64,000 nucleotides of DNA, from positions 512,001 to 576,000 of the forward strand of contig CAWGVS010000006.1 of assembly GCA_963826115.1 (NCBI GenBank), in the 5' to 3' direction. How positions within the stretch are numbered: position 1 is the first letter of the stretch; every line of letters starts with the position of its first letter. This document shows positions 20,186-28,845 of this stretch, in pieces. The stretch comes from an uncultured Candidatus Rokubacteria bacterium (GTDB taxonomy: Bacteria > Methylomirabilota > Methylomirabilia > Rokubacteriales > DASRDR01). Under the pieces are notes generated by a model. That model did no database searches and had not been told where the DNA came from. It worked only from the letters and a program-made list of their open reading frames with translations. The translations under genes were made by a program, and so were the position numbers.

Positions 20186-23100
20186 ATGACCCTCCTGCCC
20201 GAGATGGTGGGGGAGAGCCCGGGAATCGCGGCCATCCGAGACCGGATCGCCCGACTCGTGGCTCGGGCGTCGGACGTCCGGCGCCTGCCCCCTGTCCTGA
20301 TCCAGGGCGAGACCGGCAGCGGCAAGGGGCTGGTGGCGCGCGCGCTCCACCGCGCCGGGCCCCGGTCGGGCGGGCCCTTCGTCGACGTCAACTGCGCGGC
20401 GATTCCCGAGACGCTGCTCGAGGCGGAGATGTTCGGCTTCGAGCGGGGCGCCTTCACGGACGCCCGCCAGGCGAAGCGCGGCCTGTTCCAGACCGCGCAC
20501 CGCGGGACGCTCTTCCTCGACGAGATCGGGCTCCTGCCCGACGGGCTTCAGGCGAAGCTTCTCACGGTGCTCGAGGAGCGGACGGTCCGGCGCCTCGGTG
20601 CGACGCAGAGCGAGCCGGTCGACGTGTGGATCATTGCCGCGACCAACCTCGATCTCCTGGCCGCGACGCGGGCCGGCCGGTTCCGTGAGGACCTCTACCA
20701 CCGACTGGCCGTGCTGACGCTGGCCCTGCCTCCGCTCCGGGAGCGTCAGCAGGACGTCGTCCTCCTTGCCGAGCACTTCCTGGCGCGCGCGTGCGCCGAC
20801 TACGGCCTGTCGCCCAAGACCCTCGCGCCCGATGCCCGGGCGGCGCTCGTCTCCTACCGGTGGCCTGGCAACGTCCGGGAGCTGATCAACACCATGGAGC
20901 GGGTCACGCTGCTGGCCGAGGCGTCAGTCGTGACCGCCGATCTCCTGGGGCTCTCCGACGGCGGTCCGGCCGCCGCGGGTCCCGTGGCGGTGTCGCCCCC
21001 ACCCCCACCCGCGCCCGCGTCGCTGGCGGCCGTGGTGGACGGGGCCGAGCGGGCCCACCTCCAGGAGGCGCTCGAGGCGACCAGCTGGAACGTCACGCGC
21101 GCCGCCGCGCGCCTTGGGATCTCCCGGAACACCATCCGGTACCGCATGGAGAAGCACGGGCTCCGCCACGGGGCGCCCGCGCCGCCGCGCCGGACCCGGC
21201 AGCCCGCGCCCGCGCCGTCGGCGCCCGTGGTGCCCGCCCCGTCCGTCGAGACGGCCGCGCGGACCGGCATCCGGTGGGAGCGCCGGCACCTTGCGATTCT
21301 CCTCGCTCGGCTGGCCTCCGACCCCGACGCGGGCCCGCTCGACACGGGCCGCGTCATCGAAGCGCTCGTCGAGAAGGCCCGGTCCTTCGGGGGTCGCGTC
21401 GACGAGCTGGGTGCCAGCGGCTTCGTCGCCCTGTTCGGCCTCGAGCCGATCGAGGATCCCGTGCGGCGCGCCGCGCTGGCCGCTCTCGCCATGCAGCGCG
21501 CTGCCGGCCGGACGTCGGACGGCGGGCCGGCTCCCGTCCTCCGGTTCGGCGTCGACCGGGGCTCCTTCCTGATCGGCCGCCTGTCCGACGCCTCGCTGGT
21601 CGACGCGGAGGACAAGCGCACGGCGCTGAGTGCCATGGGGGCGCTCGTCGAGAGTGCCGAGCCCGGCACGGTCGTCGTCAGCGCCGCAGGCGCGTCGCTC
21701 CTCGCCCGTGGCTTCGACCTCGCGCCGCTCGGCGCCGCGGCGGGGCGGCGGGCCGCGTTCCGGCTCGGGGGGCTCGAGCGCGCGGAGGCGGCGAGCGGCC
21801 GCCGCACGCGCTTCGTCGGGCGCGATCACGAGCTCGAGCTCCTCCGTGGGCGCCTCGCCGCCGCGGTGCGCGGCCAGGGTCAGGTGGTGGCGATCGCGGG
21901 AGACGCTGGCATCGGCAAGTCCCGGCTCGTCGGCGAGCTCCGCCGCGACCTGACCGGCGACGGCATCCTCTGCCTCGAAGGGCACTGCCTGCCCTACGCG
22001 ACGCCCATCCCGTGCCTGCCGCTGGTCGAGCTCCTGCGCGCCGCGTGCGCCATCGTCGAGACCGACGGACCCGAGGGCGTCCGCGACAAGCTACGGGCGA
22101 GCCTCGACCGCGCCGGCATGGACGCGATCGCCTCGGCCCCGTACCTGCTCCATCTCCTCGACCCCGGCGAGGGCGGGGAGGCGCTGGCGCGCCTCAGCCC
22201 CGACGTCGTGAAGGCGAGGACGTTCGAGACCCTGCGGGAGCTCAGCCGGCGGCTCGCCGGCCGGACGCCGCTCGTGATCGTGGTGGAGGACCTTCACTGG
22301 GTCGACCGGACGTCGGAGGAATACCTCGGGACGCTGGTCGACGTCGTCGCCGGGGCTCGCATCCTCCTCGTCACCACGCACCGGCCGGGGTACCGGCCGC
22401 CGTGGATGGACCGGTCCTACGCGACCCAGGTCGCGCTTCAGCCGCTGTCGCCGCACGAGAGCCAGAGCCTGGTCCGCGACGTGATCGGCCCGGCCGACGT
22501 CGACGAGCCCACGGTCGAGATGATCGTGTCCAAGGCGGAGGGGAACCCGTTCTTCGCCGAGGAGCTGGCGCGGGCCGTTACCGAAGGGGGCCGCCCCACG
22601 CCCGGGTCGCCGGTCCCCGACACCGTCGAGGGCGTCCTGATGGCGCGCATCGACCGCCTCGCCGCCGAGGACAAGCGGGTTCTCCAGGCCGCGGCGGTCA
22701 TCGGGCGGACGCTGCCCTTCCTCCTGCTCCAGGCGATCCTGGAGCCGGCCGACGAGGCGCTCCGCGAGCGGCTCGCGCGGCTCCAGGGCGCCGAGTTCCT
22801 CTACGAGACCCGCGCGGCCTCGGAGCTCGAGTACACGTTCAAGCATGCCCTCACGCACGAGGTGGCGTACGCGAGTCTCCTGCCCGCCCAGCGGCGGGCG
22901 CTTCACGCCCGCATCGTCGACGTGCTCGAGAGCTGGCAGCGGGAGGGGCGGGAGGAGCTCGTCGAGCGTCTCGCGCACCACGCCATCCAGGCCGAGGCCT
23001 GGGAGAAGGCCGTCGACTACGCGCGGCGCGCCGGGCGGCAGGCGCTCACCCGGTCCGCGCACCGGGATGCGGCGGCATGGTTCGACCAGGCGCTGTCAGC

Positions 23101-24289
23101 GGTGAGCCATCTGCCCGAGCGCCGCGAGCGCCTCGAGCAAGCGATCGACCTCCAGTTCGACCTGCGGAACGCCCTCTGGCCCCTGGCCGAGTTCCGCCGG
23201 GTCTTCGAGTGCCTCAAGCGGGCCGAGCAGCTGGCCACGACCCTGGGCGACCAGAAGCGGCTCGCGATGACGTTCGCGCTCCTGACGCCGATGTTCTCGA
23301 CGCAGGAGGAGCAGGCCAAGGGGATCGAGTACGGCCGGCGGGCGCTGGACCTCGGCGTCGCGCTCGGCGACACCACGGTGCAGGTGGTCGCGACCCTCTA
23401 CCTGGCCATGGCGTACCTGACGCTGGGCAACTACTCGCGGGCCACGAAGTTCGCGCGGAAGAACGTGGCGCTCCTCCAGGGGAACGTGCGGCTCGAGCAG
23501 TTCGGGCCGCACGGCCTGCACGCCGAGCCGGCCATCCTGCCGCGGGCCCTGCTCCTCTGGAGCTTCGGGGAGCTGGGCGCGTTCGCCGAGGCGCAGCCGG
23601 TCCTGGAGGAGAGCCTGCGCATCGCCGAAACCATCGACCATCCGTGGTCCCAGACCTTCCTGGCGCTCGGGGAGGGCATCCTGCGCGTGCGCCAGGGTGA
23701 TCTGCCGCGGGCGGTCCGGACGCTCGAGCGCAGCCTCGCCCTCTGCCGCCAGTGGCAGCTCGCGGCGCTGTTCGAGGTGATCACCGGGCATCTCGGCCAC
23801 GCGTACACGCTGGCGGGGCGCACCGGTGAGGCGATCCCCCTCCTGGAGGAGGGCCTGGCGGAGCGCCGGCACTGGCTCGAGCCGTTCCCGCTGCTCGCGC
23901 TGGCGGAGGCCTACCTGCGCGTGGGGCGGACGCGCGAGGCGAGCCAGACGGCCGAGCGGGCGCTCGGTCTCGCCCGCCAGCGCGGCCAGCGCGGGCACGA
24001 GGCGTGGCTGCGCTGGCTTCTCGGCGAGATCGCGCGGCTGGACCCCGCGGGGTCAGCGGCCGACGTCGAGGCGCACTACGGGCAGGCGCTCGACCTGGCG
24101 ACGGAGCTCGACATGCGCCCGCTCGCCGCCCACTGCCACCTGGGTCTCGGCCAGTGGCACCGCCAGCGCGGCGACGCGGCCCGGGAGCAGGAGCACATGA
24201 CGACGGCCCGGTCGCTCTACCGGGAGATGGGCATGACGCTCTGGCTTGCCAAGGTCGAGGCCGAGCAGCCGGCCGTGTCGGGCGCCTAG
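20186..24289 (+). CDS. sigma54 activator AAA+ / Fis-HTH / degenerate cyclase-like / STAND-type ATPase / TPR fusion
   Basis: GETGSGKG, GAFTDA loop, LFLDEIG, FREDLYHRL, WPGNVREL, HTH NVTRAAARLGISRNTIRYR; second ATPase GDAGIGKS + IVVEDLHW, GNPFF, YTFKHALT; C-terminal TPRs. Confidence 0.9.
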   Translation: MTLLPEMVGESPGIAAIRDRIARLVARASDVRRLPPVLIQGETGSGKGLVARALHRAGPRSGGPFVDVNCAAIPETLLEAEMFGFERGAFTDARQAKRGLFQTAHRGTLFLDEIGLLPDGLQAKLLTVLEERTVRRLGATQSEPVDVWIIAATNLDLLAATRAGRFREDLYHRLAVLTLALPPLRERQQDVVLLAEHFLARACADYGLSPKTLAPDARAALVSYRWPGNVRELINTMERVTLLAEASVVTADLLGLSDGGPAAAGPVAVSPPPPPAPASLAAVVDGAERAHLQEALEATSWNVTRAAARLGISRNTIRYRMEKHGLRHGAPAPPRRTRQPAPAPSAPVVPAPSVETAARTGIRWERRHLAILLARLASDPDAGPLDTGRVIEALVEKARSFGGRVDELGASGFVALFGLEPIEDPVRRAALAALAMQRAAGRTSDGGPAPVLRFGVDRGSFLIGRLSDASLVDAEDKRTALSAMGALVESAEPGTVVVSAAGASLLARGFDLAPLGAAAGRRAAFRLGGLERAEAASGRRTRFVGRDHELELLRGRLAAAVRGQGQVVAIAGDAGIGKSRLVGELRRDLTGDGILCLEGHCLPYATPIPCLPLVELLRAACAIVETDGPEGVRDKLRASLDRAGMDAIASAPYLLHLLDPGEGGEALARLSPDVVKARTFETLRELSRRLAGRTPLVIVVEDLHWVDRTSEEYLGTLVDVVAGARILLVTTHRPGYRPPWMDRSYATQVALQPLSPHESQSLVRDVIGPADVDEPTVEMIVSKAEGNPFFAEELARAVTEGGRPTPGSPVPDTVEGVLMARIDRLAAEDKRVLQAAAVIGRTLPFLLLQAILEPADEALRERLARLQGAEFLYETRAASELEYTFKHALTHEVAYASLLPAQRRALHARIVDVLESWQREGREELVERLAHHAIQAEAWEKAVDYARRAGRQALTRSAHRDAAAWFDQALSAVSHLPERRERLEQAIDLQFDLRNALWPLAEFRRVFECLKRAEQLATTLGDQKRLAMTFALLTPMFSTQEEQAKGIEYGRRALDLGVALGDTTVQVVATLYLAMAYLTLGNYSRATKFARKNVALLQGNVRLEQFGPHGLHAEPAILPRALLLWSFGELGAFAEAQPVLEESLRIAETIDHPWSQTFLALGEGILRVRQGDLPRAVRTLERSLALCRQWQLAALFEVITGHLGHAYTLAGRTGEAIPLLEEGLAERRHWLEPFPLLALAEAYLRVGRTREASQTAERALGLARQRGQRGHEAWLRWLLGEIARLDPAGSAADVEAHYGQALDLATELDMRPLAAHCHLGLGQWHRQRGDAAREQEHMTTARSLYREMGMTLWLAKVEAEQPAVSGA

Positions 24290-24296
24290 CGCCCGC

Positions 24297-24842
24297 TCAG
24301 GGATTCGCGCCGAGGAGCGCCAGGAGCAGCTGGCGCGCGGCCGGCTGGGCCCAGTCCTTGGCCCCCACGGAGCGGGCGACGAGCCGCCCGCTCCGGTCCA
24401 CCACGTAGACGGTCGGCGGTCCCCACACGCCGTAGAGCCGCCCGGCCACGTCGCCGGTCCGGTCGAGCAGGACCGGGGCGACGTAGTCCCGCTCCTGCGC
24501 GACCTTCGCCACGTGGGCCGCATCCTCGCGGAAGTTGACGAGCAGCACCTCGAGACCACGGCCCCGGAGCTCCGTGTAGAGCCGGTTGAGGGGAGGCAAC
24601 TCCTCCCGGCAGTCCGGTCACCACGTCGCCCAGAAGAAGAGCAGGACGACCTTGCCCTTGAGCTCGCCGAGGGTCCAGGTCCGCCCGGTCAGATCGGGGA
24701 GGCTGAACGCCGGCGCGGGCTTCGGCGGCTCGTAGGCCTGGAAGTCCATGGCGGTCAGGTCGGGGCCCGCGGCGTGCGCCGTGCCGGTGACGCAGACGAG
24801 CAGGAGCGCGCCGACGACGGCCGCGCCGCGGCGGCGGCTCAC
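24297..24842 (-). CDS. Exported TlpA/ResA-family thioredoxin with selenocysteine (WATW-U-PDC)
   Basis: Track ORFs 24618..24842 and 24297..24599 are one frame joined across TGA at 24620-24618; FWATW*PDCREELP equals the WCxxC motif; C-terminal PPTVYVVD..G..GAKDW. Confidence 0.88.
24591..24607 (-). promoter_or_regulatory. SECIS-like hairpin (TlpA-like gene)
   Basis: GGGAGG-AGUUG-CCUCCC starting 10 nt 3' of the in-frame UGA. Confidence 0.6.
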
Positions 24843-25390
24843 GACGCCCCGCTCTCGCGAACGGCCTTGAGCACGTCCTCGGGCTCGAGGAGGTCCAGGG
24901 GGTTGTCCTGGATCTTCAGGTAGCGGACGACGCCCGCCCGGTCGATGACGAAGTACGCGCGCTTCGCGTAGCGATAGATGGGGCTCTTCTCGTCCGTGAC
25001 CATCGCGCCGTACGCGGGCAGCATCGTCCGCCGCTGGTCCGAGAGGAGCGGGTGCTTGATGCCCTGCTGCTTCTGGAAGGCGTCGAGGGCGGAGACGAAG
25101 TCCACGCTGATCCCGATCAGCTGCGCGTTCAGGGCCTGGAAGTCGGCCAGCCGGGCGTCCAGCCCGGTGATCTCCTTGATTCAGGGGCCGTTGAACGCGC
25201 CGATGAACGTGTAGAGCACGATCGGCCCCTTGCCGAGCAGGTCCGCGAGCTTGACCTGCTTGCCGCCCGGGGCGTTGAGGGTGAAGTCGGGGGCCTTGTC
25301 TCCGACGTCGAGCGCCTGCGCGGGGCCGGCGAGCGCCAGGACGGCGAGAACGGTGAGCGAGACCGCGAGTGCGACACCGCGTCGGAGCAT
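24839..25390 (-). CDS. Exported AhpC/TSA peroxiredoxin-like protein with selenocysteine (GAFNGP-U-IKE)
   Basis: GGAGGAGG RBS, ATG 25390, signal peptide, VGDKAPDFTL, in-frame TGA 25183-25181 at the peroxidatic position, then LIGISVD, PLLSD, AKRAYFVID. Confidence 0.87.
25151..25167 (-). promoter_or_regulatory. SECIS-like hairpin (peroxiredoxin-like gene)
   Basis: CCGGGC-UGGAC-GCCCGG starting 13 nt 3' of the in-frame UGA. Confidence 0.62.
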
Positions 25391-25503
25391 GGCGACCTCC
25401 TCCTGGTCCAGGGAATACCGAACCCGGGACGCGTGTCGTCGTCGAGGGCTCCTGCCGGAGAGAACGCCACCCGGGAGGTCCAGGGTTCCCGGGCGCTCCC
25501 GGC

Positions 25504-28224
25504 TCACTCCAGACATTCTAGCTCCGTGATGGTCCAGGGGTCTCGGAGGGGTCCGGCCGGGCTCACGCGCAGGTAGCGGAGGCTCACTGGGCCGAACGCG
25601 GCGGCCCACCGGGGCCCGCCGTTCCGCAGGAGCTCGGAGCCGGTCCAGAAGAGCGCGCCGGACCAGGTCAGCGGCTCGATGGCGGTCCACGTCGTCCCGT
25701 CGAGGGAGCCCGCGAGCCGGAGGGCGCGGCCGGGGAGCCCGGGGCGGATCTCCACGCCACGCAGCGCGCGAGGCCGTCCGAGATCCACCGTGAGCGCGTG
25801 CTCGGGCCCTCCGGGGCCGCGCGTGGCCCACGGCGTCGCGCGGTTCCCGTCGATGGCCCGCCCCGCCAGCTCCGGGTTCTCGCTGGCCGTCGCCCGCCAT
25901 CCGGCCTTGTCGAGGCGACGCGGGGGTGGCGTCGGCGTGAGCACCAGGAGGCGGTAGGGACCCGCGACGGCCTCCCGCACGGTCACCGGCTGGCCCTCGA
26001 GCGCCGCGCGCACCGCCACGGGGTCGGCGTCGGCGCCGAGGAGGATACCGGTACCTGGCTCGATGTGGAGCGGAACCAGCTCCGTCGGATCGGGGTCGGT
26101 GCGCGACGAGTCGCTCACGTTGATGTTCGCTTCTTGCGCGGCGATGGCGCCCCGCGACTCGACGCGCACCCACGCGGAGAGCCAGTGGCTCGCGTAGACG
26201 AAGTCGATGCCCTCGCGCCGGAGGGCGGCGGTGATCTCGCCGGGCGCGGGCACCGGGGGCCGGGGCCCGCCGGGCCCGTACACGGAGAGCTCCCGCGCCG
26301 ACCAGATGTGGTATCGCACCGCCGCGGTCTGGACGATCCGCACGTGCCGCGCGCGAACGGGGGCGAAGATGGCCTGCACGCGCCCGCGCCGGACCTTGAG
26401 GAACGGATGATGCTCGGAGAAAAAGAGCGGGCCCCAGTATCCGGACACGGTGACGACCGTGTCCCACCGCTGACCGTCCATCGACACCTCGACGCGGAAG
26501 CCGCCCGGCAGGTCCTGCCAGTCGATCGCGAGGAGGTCCACGCGGGCGACGAGCTCGGGCGCGCCCAGGTCGACCTCGAGCCACTGGTCCGGCATCAGCT
26601 CGAGGGCCGTGGTCCACGACGACGCGGCGTCCCCGTCGAGGAGGTCCGCGGCCCGGTCGGAGCGGTGGCTGGCCCGGATCGTCCAGCGCTCGCGCGGGAG
26701 CGGCACGAACGTCGTGCTGAAGCGCGGCGAGAGCTCGAGGACGTGAAGCTCGCCCAGCACGGTCTCCCGGAAGTCGACACCGAGCCCCTGGAGAGTGTCA
26801 CGCAGCGGGCGCACCTCCGTCGGGGCCGCGATGATCGGCGGGTTCACCGCGGCGTCGACGAGCCGTCCGTGGTCCACGATCTGCTCCCGCCAGAGATCGG
26901 CGATCACGACTCGCCCGCCAGTCAGGTACGTCATGCCGTAGGCCGAGAGGTGAAACGCCCCGGCCAGATAGGCGCCCCGGACGCCGCGGTCCTCGAGCCA
27001 GTGGAGCACGGGGTCGAACCGACGGGTGAGGGTCGTCCACCGGGGCGCTCCCGGGTCCGTGGTGAGCACGCTGTCCTGCCAGTTTGGCCACGCGTTGAGC
27101 GCGAGCAGCGCGGCCAGCGCGGCGCCGGCGGCGAGCGGTCGCCGACGCCGGAGTCGGTCGAGGCCCTCGCCCATCCAGCAGGGAAGGACGGAGTACAGCG
27201 GGAGCAGGTAGTAGTGGTCGATCGCGCGCTTCGAGCCGAGGACGAGTCCGAGGTTCGTGATGGCGACGATCCACAGGACGACCTGCCCGCGCCCGATCGA
27301 CCCTCGCCCTCCGACGAGCCACGCGAGCTGGGCGCGGTGCCGGACCGCGGCCCCCACGACCGCGGCGATCCAGAGGGGCACCGCGATCGCGAGGAACGCG
27401 ACGATCCAGGCCCGCCCCGCCGGTAGATGCAGGCCGAGGAGGCGGGGGAGAAAGTCTCCCACGACCGCCGCCAGCCGGTCGCCGAACGGCGCCGGGGTGA
27501 CACCGCCCGCCTGGTGCAGGGCAAACTTCGCCGACGGGAAGTTCCTCGTTTCGTACAGCCATTGCGGGACGCCGCCGAGGAGGAGCCCGCCGGCGAACCA
27601 GGCGATGCGCCATCGCCACACGAGGCCGGTCCGGAGCGCCAGGATCCCGAACGGCGCGAGGTAGACCACGATCAGCGGATTCAGCCACCAGCCGAGCCCG
27701 GCGAGCAGACCGAGCCCGAGGAGCGCCCGGGGCCGGCCCGGATCGGCGACGAAGATCGTGTGGGTCGCCAGGATGCAGAGGTTGCCCACGGCCAGTGCTG
27801 CGGGGTGGTTGGGGGTCGCCGTGAAGCTCCACTGGGCGAGGAACAGCGGTGGGACCGCGAGCACCGCGAGACCGAGGAGCGCGGCGGGCCGTTCGAGGAA
27901 GCGGCGCAGGACCAGCCAGCCGGTCCAGAGAATGAAGAGGCCGATGAAATACGCGAACCAGTCGAGCGCCCGCGGGGCTGGGCCGACCATCTCGAACCAC
28001 GCGGCCAAGGGATAGGCCGAGGCCGCGCCCCAATACTCCGGACCGGCGACGTTCGCCGGGAAGTGGCCGCCGAGGATCCGGAGGGCGGGCATCGCGACCA
28101 TGCTCTCGTCCCAGTGGAACGGCCAGTGGAAGGGCGCGACGAACCGGAGCGCCCGGACGCAGGCCCCGACCACGAGCAGGCCGGGGACGAGAAGCCGCAC
28201 CACTCGGTCGCCCCCGGATCTCAT
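25504..28224 (-). CDS. GT-C (ArnT/PMT-like) membrane glycosyltransferase with two C-terminal F5/8-type-C (discoidin) domains
   Basis: HWDES motif after first TM, many TMs; two DG....W.T...WLEVDLG / LTVDLG discoidin-like repeats. Confidence 0.75.
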   Translation of the reverse strand: MRSGGDRVVRLLVPGLLVVGACVRALRFVAPFHWPFHWDESMVAMPALRILGGHFPANVAGPEYWGAASAYPLAAWFEMVGPAPRALDWFAYFIGLFILWTGWLVLRRFLERPAALLGLAVLAVPPLFLAQWSFTATPNHPAALAVGNLCILATHTIFVADPGRPRALLGLGLLAGLGWWLNPLIVVYLAPFGILALRTGLVWRWRIAWFAGGLLLGGVPQWLYETRNFPSAKFALHQAGGVTPAPFGDRLAAVVGDFLPRLLGLHLPAGRAWIVAFLAIAVPLWIAAVVGAAVRHRAQLAWLVGGRGSIGRGQVVLWIVAITNLGLVLGSKRAIDHYYLLPLYSVLPCWMGEGLDRLRRRRPLAAGAALAALLALNAWPNWQDSVLTTDPGAPRWTTLTRRFDPVLHWLEDRGVRGAYLAGAFHLSAYGMTYLTGGRVVIADLWREQIVDHGRLVDAAVNPPIIAAPTEVRPLRDTLQGLGVDFRETVLGELHVLELSPRFSTTFVPLPRERWTIRASHRSDRAADLLDGDAASSWTTALELMPDQWLEVDLGAPELVARVDLLAIDWQDLPGGFRVEVSMDGQRWDTVVTVSGYWGPLFFSEHHPFLKVRRGRVQAIFAPVRARHVRIVQTAAVRYHIWSARELSVYGPGGPRPPVPAPGEITAALRREGIDFVYASHWLSAWVRVESRGAIAAQEANINVSDSSRTDPDPTELVPLHIEPGTGILLGADADPVAVRAALEGQPVTVREAVAGPYRLLVLTPTPPPRRLDKAGWRATASENPELAGRAIDGNRATPWATRGPGGPEHALTVDLGRPRALRGVEIRPGLPGRALRLAGSLDGTTWTAIEPLTWSGALFWTGSELLRNGGPRWAAAFGPVSLRYLRVSPAGPLRDPWTITELECLE

Positions 28225-28467: not shown

Positions 28468-28845
28468 ATGCCCCACGGGAACACGATCACGCTCGAGCCG
28501 TACCGCGGCCACTGGCCGCCGGACGACCCCGACGCCGGCTTCCGGCAGCTGGTCGCCGAGTACTCCGCGATCGACCCGCTGCCGACCCTCGCGGAGCTCG
28601 GCCGCCGGAAGGGCATCCCGCTTGGCGCGCTCGTCGCCTTCGTCCTGGCGCGGTATGCCGCCTCGGGCAGCGAGGCGCTCCTCTACACCGGGCCGGTCGT
28701 GGTCCGTCAGATGGCGGAGATGGTCGAGAAGGCGGAGGCGGCGGGCACCGACGCCGCGCGGCTCGAGGCGTACCGCGGGCTCGCCGCGATCGTGTCGTGG
28801 CTCCGCGTCCCGCTGGAGGACCCCGCGTGGCGGCCCGGAGCGTGA
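28468..28845 (+). CDS. Hypothetical protein (DUF6027-like)
   Basis: AGGAGGG RBS before ATG 28468; W.PDDPDA.F, DPLPTL, ARYAASGSEALL..GP, SWLR. Confidence 0.7.
   Translation: MPHGNTITLEPYRGHWPPDDPDAGFRQLVAEYSAIDPLPTLAELGRRKGIPLGALVAFVLARYAASGSEALLYTGPVVVRQMAEMVEKAEAAGTDAARLEAYRGLAAIVSWLRVPLEDPAWRPGA

Follow-up and report, generated by a model that had tools for sequence, protein, structure and literature searches.

Two neighboring minus-strand genes in the genome of an uncultured Candidatus Rokubacteria bacterium (assembly GCA_963826115.1), here called gene A and gene B, are each interrupted by an in-frame TGA codon. This raises the question of whether the locus contains broken genes or genes for selenoproteins, in which UGA is read as selenocysteine (Sec, U), and, if the latter, whether the 2 products act together. 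The window analyzed here is a stretch of 64,000 nucleotides (nt) from this genome (contig CAWGVS010000006.1, positions 512,001 to 576,000), and positions without a contig label refer to it. Judged from sequence comparisons, A and B are very probably genuine selenoprotein genes in which UGA is read as Sec. The reading that we favor, with moderate confidence, is that a soil bacterium of the Methylomirabilota (Rokubacteria) type has a 2-gene operon for 2 secreted thioredoxin-fold selenoproteins, which would form a relay for the reduction of peroxides in the cell envelope.

Two Genes With a Single Internal TGA Codon

Reading TGA as U turns genes A and B into uninterrupted frames, each of which contains just one TGA before its stop codon. 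Under translation table 11, gene A is split into an open reading frame (ORF) at 24839..25105 and the end of another at 25181..26617, while gene B is split into ORFs at 24297..24599 and 24618..24842. A first-pass annotation of the window had described a minus-strand gene pair coupled by a GTGA overlap, with each gene in 2 table 11 pieces and with one in-frame TGA per gene at the position expected for the catalytic Cys (25183-25181 and 24620-24618), and all of these coordinates were confirmed. It had also anticipated that standard annotation would fragment the genes, and public protein predictions do cut both of them. About 110 of the best 120 matches to A and about 100 of the best 120 matches to B were C-terminal pieces of 100 to 113 amino acids, which start internally, a short way past the TGA, and do not include the catalytic motif (for example, MGFDAALPQFE... 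for A and MPPVNRLY... for B).

A scan of positions 24000-25800 identified 0 promoter-like sites. A terminator scan of the same region identified 1 terminator-like site, at 24658-24643 inside gene B, which is at the level expected by chance (0.3 sites).

The Genome Encodes the Selenocysteine Decoding Machinery

The genome that contains the window (G000; 6.24 Mb, 12 contigs, rated 99.09% complete) encodes the full set of components proposed as a check on the selenoprotein assignment. The selA (576 bits) and selB (348 bits) genes are neighbors on contig C8, and the selD gene (393 bits), located on contig C5, carries one in-frame TGA of its own; all 3 genes scored above the curated cut-offs. The gene for tRNA-Sec was located 1.2 kb from selA and selB, obtained 76.9 bits on the Rfam tRNA-Sec model, likewise above the cut-off, and was classified by ARAGORN as SeC with the anticodon tca. 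Among the 64 tRNAs identified in the genome with ARAGORN, the UCA anticodon was unique to tRNA-Sec.

Two additional matches to the Rfam tRNA-Sec model, for which the gathering score is 47, were observed on contig C12 at positions 734246-734339 (49.7 bits) and 732490-732574 (49.1 bits). These may be long-arm tRNAs, and 5 of 14 control genomes also exceeded the cut-off. ARAGORN also identified a tRNA-Pyl with the anticodon cta (C12:686301-686373) and 3 tRNAs to which no type was assigned and whose anticodon loops are odd (C6:901762-901855, C11:128991-129083, and C12:873296-873382). A tRNA-Arg(CCG) of 98 nt was called within the window at 28713-28810 on the plus strand, with the anticodon at position 36. 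It had no Rfam match at E<=1 and a fold z of -0.37, and the call in this G+C-rich DNA is probably spurious.

The TGA Codons Are Conserved Among Relatives

Matches to both genes were found in all of the 40 relatives of the same order that were searched, and the close orthologs carried exactly one TGA. In this search, and in a sample of 151 genomes of the phylum, what was scored is a TGA anywhere inside the match, irrespective of its column. An ortholog of A at E<=1e-35 was present in 84 of the 151 genomes; by family, the counts were 9/10, 69/94, and 5/7, with 0 in eight other families. The TGA fell inside 99 of the 100 matches listed in this sample, the exception being a match that covers only residues 80-182. 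These tallies include the unpublished genomes G038, G080, and G119; leaving these 3 out gives 81/148 genomes and 96/97 listed matches, and no other result depends on them.

Genes extracted from 26 loci contained U at the same column in 22/22 cases for A and in 25/26 cases for B. The exception for B, from a 68% complete genome, has a frameshift upstream of the motif, and one of the 22 genes for A was frameshifted near its end. A further scan with one genome per species identified 127 relatives, and the best 80 loci were examined. TGA occupied the A column in 80/80 of them, and gene B was present in 74/80, with TGA at the B column in 74/74; no other stop codons were observed in either gene. This set overlaps with the genomes of the other searches, and the counts are thus not independent. 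Nearly all of the relatives' records belonged to Methylomirabilota, Rokubacteria, Rokuibacteriota, or NC10. Conservation of the protein sequence extended to both sides of the TGA, with a mean column identity of 78% for A and 73% for B. Relatives of gene A with 58% to 65% identity were also noted in bins titled Solibacteraceae, Verrucomicrobiia, Nitrosocosmicus, Dormiibacterota, Binatia, and Acidoferrum (loci L086, L094, L113, L123, L125, L132, and L134), which suggests either mis-binned Methylomirabilota contigs or gene transfer.

Contigs from 4 public sequencing runs were aligned to the locus. Such contigs say nothing of transcription, levels, or transcript ends, and most of the runs match small shares of the locus and carry relatives rather than the same strain, the uncovered parts being uninformative. 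Two RNA libraries each provided a contig across the TGA of gene A, one of 151 nt that is identical in sequence to the window and one of 219 nt, and both contigs may stem from DNA in those libraries. A 990-nt DNA contig spanned the TGA of gene B as well as the junction between A and B. No change at either TGA was found among the differences listed for the contigs of these 4 runs.

The first-pass annotation had considered 2 independent nonsense mutations at the catalytic codons unlikely, and the recurrence of TGA at identical columns in 80/80 and 74/74 loci bears this out. Homologs do not terminate at these sites, and neither TGC nor TGT was found among the listed differences of the spanning contigs.

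Stem-Loops Downstream of the TGA Codons

Each TGA had been reported to be followed by a 6-base pair (bp) hairpin. Both hairpins are present as described, and both fit the published model of the bacterial selenocysteine insertion sequence (SECIS), which specifies a loop of 3 to 9 nt with a G in the first 2 positions, a stem of 4 to 16 bp, a distance of 16 to 37 nt from the UGA, and a folding energy of <= -7.5 kcal/mol (PMC13188914). The folding of the single sequences was no better than chance in G+C-rich DNA, with z values of -1.5 for A (57 nt) and -0.8 for B (59 nt), so it is by conservation, rather than by the energy of a single fold, that the hairpin of B, and that of A within the genus, stand above chance. 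An Rfam scan of positions 24200-25500 at E<=10 identified no SECIS family, and only a chance match of 16 bits to a viral pseudoknot.

The case for a SECIS element is strong in gene B, where the distance from the UGA to the loop is 16 nt and the folding energy is -10.0 kcal/mol. The stem was paired in 150/150 cells of 25 orthologs, with the loop AGUU(G/A), and one of the pairs varied between G-C (17 sequences), G-U (5), and A-U (3). Among the 74 loci with gene B, all 6 stem pairs were standard in 73, and variants altered on both sides of the stem were identified (GGUCGG/CCGACC, GGAGGG/CCCUCC, and GAGAGG/CCUCUC), with compensatory changes at 3 pair positions. Furthermore, the identity at third codon positions was 0.94 in the 12 codons after U75 compared to 0.70 gene-wide, which is the top value of 141 segments and equalled only by segments that overlap it. 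The conserved stretch includes TTG-Leu and CCT-Pro codons, both of which would be expected to occur seldom at such a high G+C content. It is this combination of a conserved, covarying stem-loop with suppressed synonymous change that argues for the element.

The evidence for gene A is mixed. The short hairpin, with 6 bp, 19 nt from the UGA to the loop, and a folding energy of -11.4 kcal/mol, is kept within the genus, where it shows one compensatory change from C-G to U-A. Beyond the genus it is not retained, with 69.8% of cells paired in 21 distinct sequences and 182/438 cells paired in a larger set. An RNAalifold consensus suggested an alternative stem that is found throughout the lineage, the outer 9-bp helix of which was paired in 617/657 cells of 73 distinct sequences (87.3% of cells in a smaller set) and covaried through G-C/C-G and U-A/C-G exchanges at several pairs, while an inner 4-bp helix was paired in 222/292 cells. 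Read by eye, the window sequence forms 7 of the 9 outer pairs and has 2 mismatches. The 2 structures share bases and are therefore mutually exclusive. The third-position identity in the 12 codons after U70 was 0.65 compared to 0.72 gene-wide, and 130 of 143 segments had values at least as high. The genus-specific short hairpin may not be the SECIS element of the whole family, and either stem may be the one that SelB uses in gene A.

Protein Families, Active Sites, and Predicted Export

The protein encoded by gene A matched the Pfam family AhpC-TSA with 104.7 bits (cut-off 26). Its best relatives of solved structure were the archaeal BCP peroxiredoxins 2ywn (E 4e-20) and 2cx3 (E 9e-20), which aligned to residues 27-177. 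The pairing of Cys with TGA that had been suggested as a check was seen in the alignment of U70 with the peroxidatic Cys of these proteins, located in the motif AAFTQVC/AAFSPVC, and one close public homolog (P0005) has Cys at the U70 column. The catalytic Arg, R144 in the motif KRAYF(V/I)ID, was invariant in 20/20 orthologs and aligned with akrAvFvid of the solved BCPs. The protein contains no Cys at all, which leaves Sec70 as the sole redox residue; as a one-Sec enzyme, the protein would therefore depend on a separate partner for recycling. With scores of 52.9 bits for the NCBIfam BCP equivalog (cut-off 140) and 42 bits for PrxU (cut-off 270), gene A falls far under the cut-off of the PrxU family of Sec-peroxiredoxins and is not a member of it. 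The sequence features suggest that the product of gene A is a peroxidase, which we hold to be rather more probable than the opposite.

Gene B encodes a protein with matches to the Pfam families AhpC-TSA (90.8 bits), Redoxin (76.9 bits), and Thioredoxin_8 (44.8 bits). Its best solved relatives were 3kcm, ResA, DsbE, and TlpA 1jfu, which matched over the full domain, with the homologous domain starting near residue 41. Full-domain matches of this kind settle the folds of both proteins. The residues W71, W74, U75, C78, and P143 were invariant in 23/23 orthologs, and we take P143, located in the GxPT loop, to be the cis-Pro. The redox center is Sec75-Pro-Asp-Cys78. For this protein the Cys/TGA pairing is direct, since public homologs with 53% to 61% identity have Cys forms of the motif, WATWCPDC or WATWCPPC. 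The scores for the NCBIfam equivalogs, given with their cut-offs, were 91.1/170 bits for ResA, 67/230 for TlpA, 59.4/123 for DsbE, and 63.4/210 for StoA, and those for the Sec models were 62/300 bits for WAxxUGC_long and 22.6/100 for the TUGYCR redoxin. By these scores, the protein is a member of the broad TlpA/ResA/CcmG-type family only and of no curated equivalog.

Signal peptides had been reported at the N-termini of both proteins, and the features are present as judged by simple rules, which ask for positive charge in the n-region, a stretch of >=12 uncharged residues as the core, and small residues at positions -3 and -1. All 3 rules held in 21/21 orthologs of A, in which the core was 16 to 25 residues and the cleavage-like site preceded a conserved L[DEQ]VG motif; the catalytic domain of the solved homologs begins at residue 27 of A. 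In the orthologs of B, the n-region and core were present in 24/24 and the small residues in 23/24, and the uncharged cores of the A and B orthologs span 16 to 29 residues. An N-terminal Arg-Arg is not kept across the orthologs, and the signals are therefore read as being of the Sec type (the secretion pathway, not the residue) rather than the Tat type. Export of A and B by cleavable signal peptides of this type is likely.

Pairing of the Genes and Related Genes in the Genome

Gene B was located directly downstream of gene A in 20/20 loci around the best matches to A, and an NTGA overlap between the genes was observed in 19/20 orthologous loci, with the start codon chosen nearest to the aligned start. 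In the one-genome-per-species scan, B adjoined A in 73 of the 74 loci that contained both. The genome also contains a paralogous pair at C5:1679022-1680076, in which a gene for a Sec-Prx-like protein (FFGAAFAPT-U; Prx, peroxiredoxin) is separated by 24 nt from a gene for a Cys-type TlpA-like protein (WATWCPPC), and both proteins have signal-peptide-like starts. Pairs of this Sec-Prx/Cys-TlpA type were found at 11 places in 9 other genomes of the same order. A functional link between A and B is supported by their adjacency and translational coupling, together with this paralogous twin.

The sole match to the DsbD_TM family in the genome is a CcdA of 246 amino acids with both conserved Cys residues (G000:C5:140811-141461). 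A DsbD-family component, a TlpA-type component, and a peroxiredoxin are thus all encoded, as CcdA, gene B, and gene A, respectively.

Two or three whole copies of the A-B pair were noted in some relatives (G008 on contigs C86, C4, and C3; G016 on C140 and C270; G029 on C81 and C79), with gene B split in one of the copies in G008. These genomes were rated 92% to 100% complete with 2% to 7% contamination, and co-assembled strains are possible. It was also noted that 6 more thioredoxin-fold genes in the genome that contains the window have a TGA at the redox column (Table 1). The motifs of these 6 genes are DWTPG-U (BCP-like), WATW-U-PYC, WASW-U-GC, FFASW-U-GPC (two copies), and FWTYG-U-INC, which fits the very large selenoproteomes reported for the phylum.

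A Putative Envelope Relay and the Alternatives

We propose a relay that is modeled on the ScsB-TlpA-PprX system of Caulobacter. SelB and tRNA-Sec would be directed to both UGA codons by a stem-loop located just downstream. In the envelope, the selenolate of A (A-Se(-)) would reduce H2O2 or an organic hydroperoxide and be converted to a selenenic acid, which would be attacked by Sec75 of B to give an A-Se-Se-B intermediate. Cys78 of B would then resolve this intermediate by forming an internal Se-S bond in B, by which A is freed, and B would be re-reduced by the single CcdA-type membrane electron transporter of the genome, with electrons from cytoplasmic thioredoxin. That B is the reductant of A appears somewhat more probable than not from the adjacency and coupling of the genes. 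That the relay is all-selenium, extracytoplasmic, and runs through a diselenide, with a coupled pair kept throughout 2 families and one sister family of Methylomirabilota and with Sec perhaps relaxing the need for the otherwise near-universal Pro and Thr residues of the peroxiredoxin motif, as the change of Thr to Asn or Ala in one genus may indicate, we put forward tentatively. Of the all-selenium relay suggested as a possibility in the first-pass annotation, the 2 selenoprotein genes are supported by the decoding machinery and by conservation, while the relay function itself stays a matter of inference.

Several observations weigh against this proposal, and the mixed picture for the SECIS element of gene A, with a short hairpin confined to the genus, 2 mismatches in the long stem, and no suppression of synonymous change, is one of them. 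The signal peptides were assigned by simple rules. The PxxxTxxC motif is not found in A, where the corresponding stretch is I63...N67..U70. Its Pro is Ile in 20/20 aligned orthologs. Most genera retain the Thr of the motif (FT-x-x-U), but the genus of the window has Asn or Ala there, the site reading FN-G-P-U, or FA-G-T-U in some members. Both genes score under every curated cut-off in NCBIfam, including those of the Sec families PrxU, WAxxUGC, and TUGYCR. Relatives of the TlpA/ResA/CcmG type usually act in the maturation of cytochromes or copper proteins. No B was found within 1.5 kb of A in 6 of the 80 loci, one of which is cut by a contig end, and the best matches to A and B were located on separate contigs in 4 genomes of 2 genera. 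Finally, the gene for CcdA is not linked to the A/B pair, and the genes that flank the pair are conserved only in close relatives, within the genus.

These observations bear on a second reading, which we consider unlikely though well short of negligible, namely that A and B are genuine exported selenoproteins that form no peroxide relay. The protein encoded by gene A would then be Prx-like with another substrate, for example protein sulfenic acids, disulfides, or a metal or metalloid, while B would act in the maturation of cytochrome c or copper centers, and the adjacency of the genes would reflect co-regulation or a different shared substrate. The absence from A of the Pro and, in the genus, the Thr of the PxxxTxxC motif fits such a role, as do the best NCBIfam matches of B, which are ResA, TlpA, StoA, and DsbE, and the genomes in which A and B are apart. 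In the Caulobacter report, PrxL, a protein without the conserved Prx residues, is described as having no detectable peroxidase activity (PMC3322552), a result that also counts against a peroxidase function for A. However, T-x-x-U is present in most genera and the catalytic Arg in all, and A matches true BCP peroxidases over the full domain with E values of about 1e-20. Pairing with the NTGA overlap is lineage-wide and is repeated in the paralogous pair, and other Cys-type TlpA/ResA paralogs of the genome could serve cytochrome maturation. We therefore retain the envelope relay as the preferred interpretation.

A reading of TGA at both sites as another residue, such as Trp, Gly, or Cys, through a suppressor tRNA or an altered code is very improbable. 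A W or a G does occur at the column in some public predictions (P0003, P0004, P0007, P0008, P0123, and P0126), but the simplest explanation is that gene callers applied a different code to short contigs. In the genome, tRNA-Sec alone has a UCA anticodon, the selA, selB, and selD genes are present, and TGA also terminates both gene A and gene B. Moreover, redox-active Cys columns followed by conserved stem-loops are the signature of Sec decoding. Least probable of all are nonsense mutations or sequencing errors that have left 2 pseudogenes or 4 fragments, a reading suggested by the frames being interrupted under table 11 and by public annotation that calls only the pieces after the TGA, but refuted, as far as comparative sequence evidence allows, by the identical TGA columns in 80/80 and 74/74 loci with no other stops, by protein conservation on either side, and by the contigs of other runs that cover the sites with no listed change, including the 151-nt RNA-library contig and the 990-nt DNA contig.

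Comparison With Described Systems

In Caulobacter crescentus, the DsbD-family membrane protein ScsB reduces TlpA, which in turn reduces the exported PrxQ-type peroxiredoxin PprX (Cho et al. 2012, mBio, PMC3322552). The locus described here resembles this system in that it combines a BCP/PrxQ-type peroxiredoxin with a predicted signal sequence, a proposed direct reductant of the TlpA type that is likewise predicted to be exported, and a DsbD-family source of electrons. It differs in that both nucleophiles are selenocysteine, and in that the genes overlap in one operon, whereas separate loci (CC1673 and CC2210) are given for Caulobacter. According to the same report, PprX has 2 redox-active cysteines (PMC3322552), whereas the peroxiredoxin described here has no resolving Cys and a degenerate PxxxT part. 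In contrast to ScsB, the sole DsbD-family gene found here is a plain CcdA, and the present system is known from its genes alone.

Selenoproteins of both families have been cataloged previously (PMC2398784, PMC13188914). Like the cataloged Prx selenoproteins (pfam00578, TxxU), gene A encodes an AhpC/TSA domain in which Sec takes the peroxidatic position, and most of its orthologs have FT-x-x-U. Unlike the TxxU proteins as cataloged, the genus of the window has FN-G-P-U or FA-G-T-U, the N-terminus is signal-peptide-like, and there is no other Cys. Gene B shares a TlpA/ResA-like fold with Sec in the first position of CxxC with the cataloged Prx-like 1 proteins, the thiol:disulfide interchange protein, and the UGC-containing TlpA family (PMC2398784, PMC13188914), but differs from the UGC-type TlpA selenoproteins there described in its motif, W-A-T-W-U-P-D-C, and in the fixed location of the gene beside that of a Sec-Prx. 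Neighboring pairs of selenoprotein genes are also in print (PMC2398784, PMC13188914) and, as here, consist of 2 adjoining genes with one presumed redox process. The combination of Prx (TxxU) with TlpA-like UxxC is not among the neighbor pairs named in the available parts of these papers, while it was observed here in 73 loci, with a Sec/Cys twin in the same genome. A Methylomirabilota genome has a predicted total of 63 genes for selenoproteins (PMC13188914).

The novelty of the locus was thus rated too high at first, since Prx (TxxU), Prx-like and TlpA-like (UxxC) selenoproteins, neighboring selenoprotein genes, and a large selenoproteome in Methylomirabilota had already been published. Both selenoprotein families and selenoprotein-rich Methylomirabilota/Rokubacteria are known, and it is the paired, exported version that differs. 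No description of the A/B pair, or of an exported relay of Sec-TlpA and Sec-Prx, was found in the literature searched, and the pair may already be listed elsewhere, for instance in supplementary data.

Coordinates and Genomic Surroundings

The coordinates of the features are given in Table 1.

Table 1 Location of genes, codons, and predicted elements in the window and of related genes elsewhere in the genome (G000)
Feature	Location	Strand	Description
Gene A	24839..25390	minus	183 aa (amino acids), ATG start, TGA stop; predicted exported 1-Sec peroxiredoxin, AhpC/TSA, BCP/PrxQ-like
Gene B	24297..24842	minus	181 aa, GTG start, TGA stop; TlpA/ResA-like thiol:disulfide oxidoreductase, UxxC center, predicted exported
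Sec codon of A (U70)	25181..25183	minus	Peroxidatic-Cys column; context FIGAFNGP-U-IKEI
Sec codon of B (U75)	24618..24620	minus	First position of WATW-U-PDC; context FWATW-U-PDCREE
GTGA overlap	24839..24842	minus	Start of B within stop of A; translational coupling; read from sequence
Shine-Dalgarno-like AGGAGGAGG	25396..25404	minus	5 nt upstream of the ATG of gene A; read from sequence
Signal-peptide-like N-terminus of A	25313..25390	minus	Residues 1-26, ...AQA then LDVG; rule-based
Signal-peptide-like N-terminus of B	24771..24842	minus	Residues 1-24, ...AHA then AGPD; rule-based
SECIS of B (predicted)	24591..24607	minus	GGGAGG/AGUUG/CCUCCC, 6 bp, UGA + 10 nt to stem
Candidate SECIS of A (first-pass hairpin)	25151..25167	minus	CCGGGC/UGGAC/GCCCGG, UGA + 13 nt to stem
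Alternative lineage-wide stem of A	25132..25166	minus	Outer helix 25166-25158 with 25140-25132; RNAalifold consensus
selB, selA, and tRNA-Sec cluster	G000:C8:81424-86039
selD	G000:C5:561687-562604		Itself a selenoprotein gene
Other TGA-containing thioredoxin-fold genes	G000: C5:868954-869394; C2:160630-161163; C6:242057-242413; C5:2072480-2072890; C11:52739-53149; C5:917322-917855

The gene upstream of the pair (25504-28224, minus strand) encodes a membrane protein of 906 amino acids, with a PMT_2 glycosyltransferase domain in the N-terminal part and 2 F5/8 type C (discoidin) domains, and ends 113 nt upstream of gene A. Downstream of the pair (20186-24289, plus strand) is a gene for a fusion protein of 1367 amino acids, with a sigma-54 interaction domain, a Fis-type HTH, an AAA_16 ATPase domain, and TPR repeats. 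This regulator gene is convergent with gene B, and the stop codons of the 2 genes are 7 nt apart. A palindrome, GGGCGC-UAG-GCGCCC, is located between the convergent gene ends at 24280-24294; it has no T run and could be a bidirectional stem. Only close relatives have the same flanking genes. It is therefore the A/B pair that forms the stable unit, and the flanking genes were set aside as clues to a pathway.

Biological Significance

The truncation of the public predictions means that annotation and metaproteomic databases miss the catalytic halves of these proteins throughout the phylum. Defense against peroxides in the envelope is known from few bacterial systems, of which TlpA-PprX of Caulobacter is the described model. 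NADPH-driven repair is not available outside the cytoplasm, where being resistant to irreversible over-oxidation should be of advantage. With Sec/Sec and Sec/Cys pairs encoded in one genome, the question of Sec versus Cys is directly testable with 4 small proteins and, if the relay is real, the side-by-side pairs would provide a natural comparison of the benefit of the second selenium. If the proposal holds, the presence of selenium in both partners, in an abundant uncultured phylum of soil bacteria, would demonstrate the use of selenium outside the cytoplasm.

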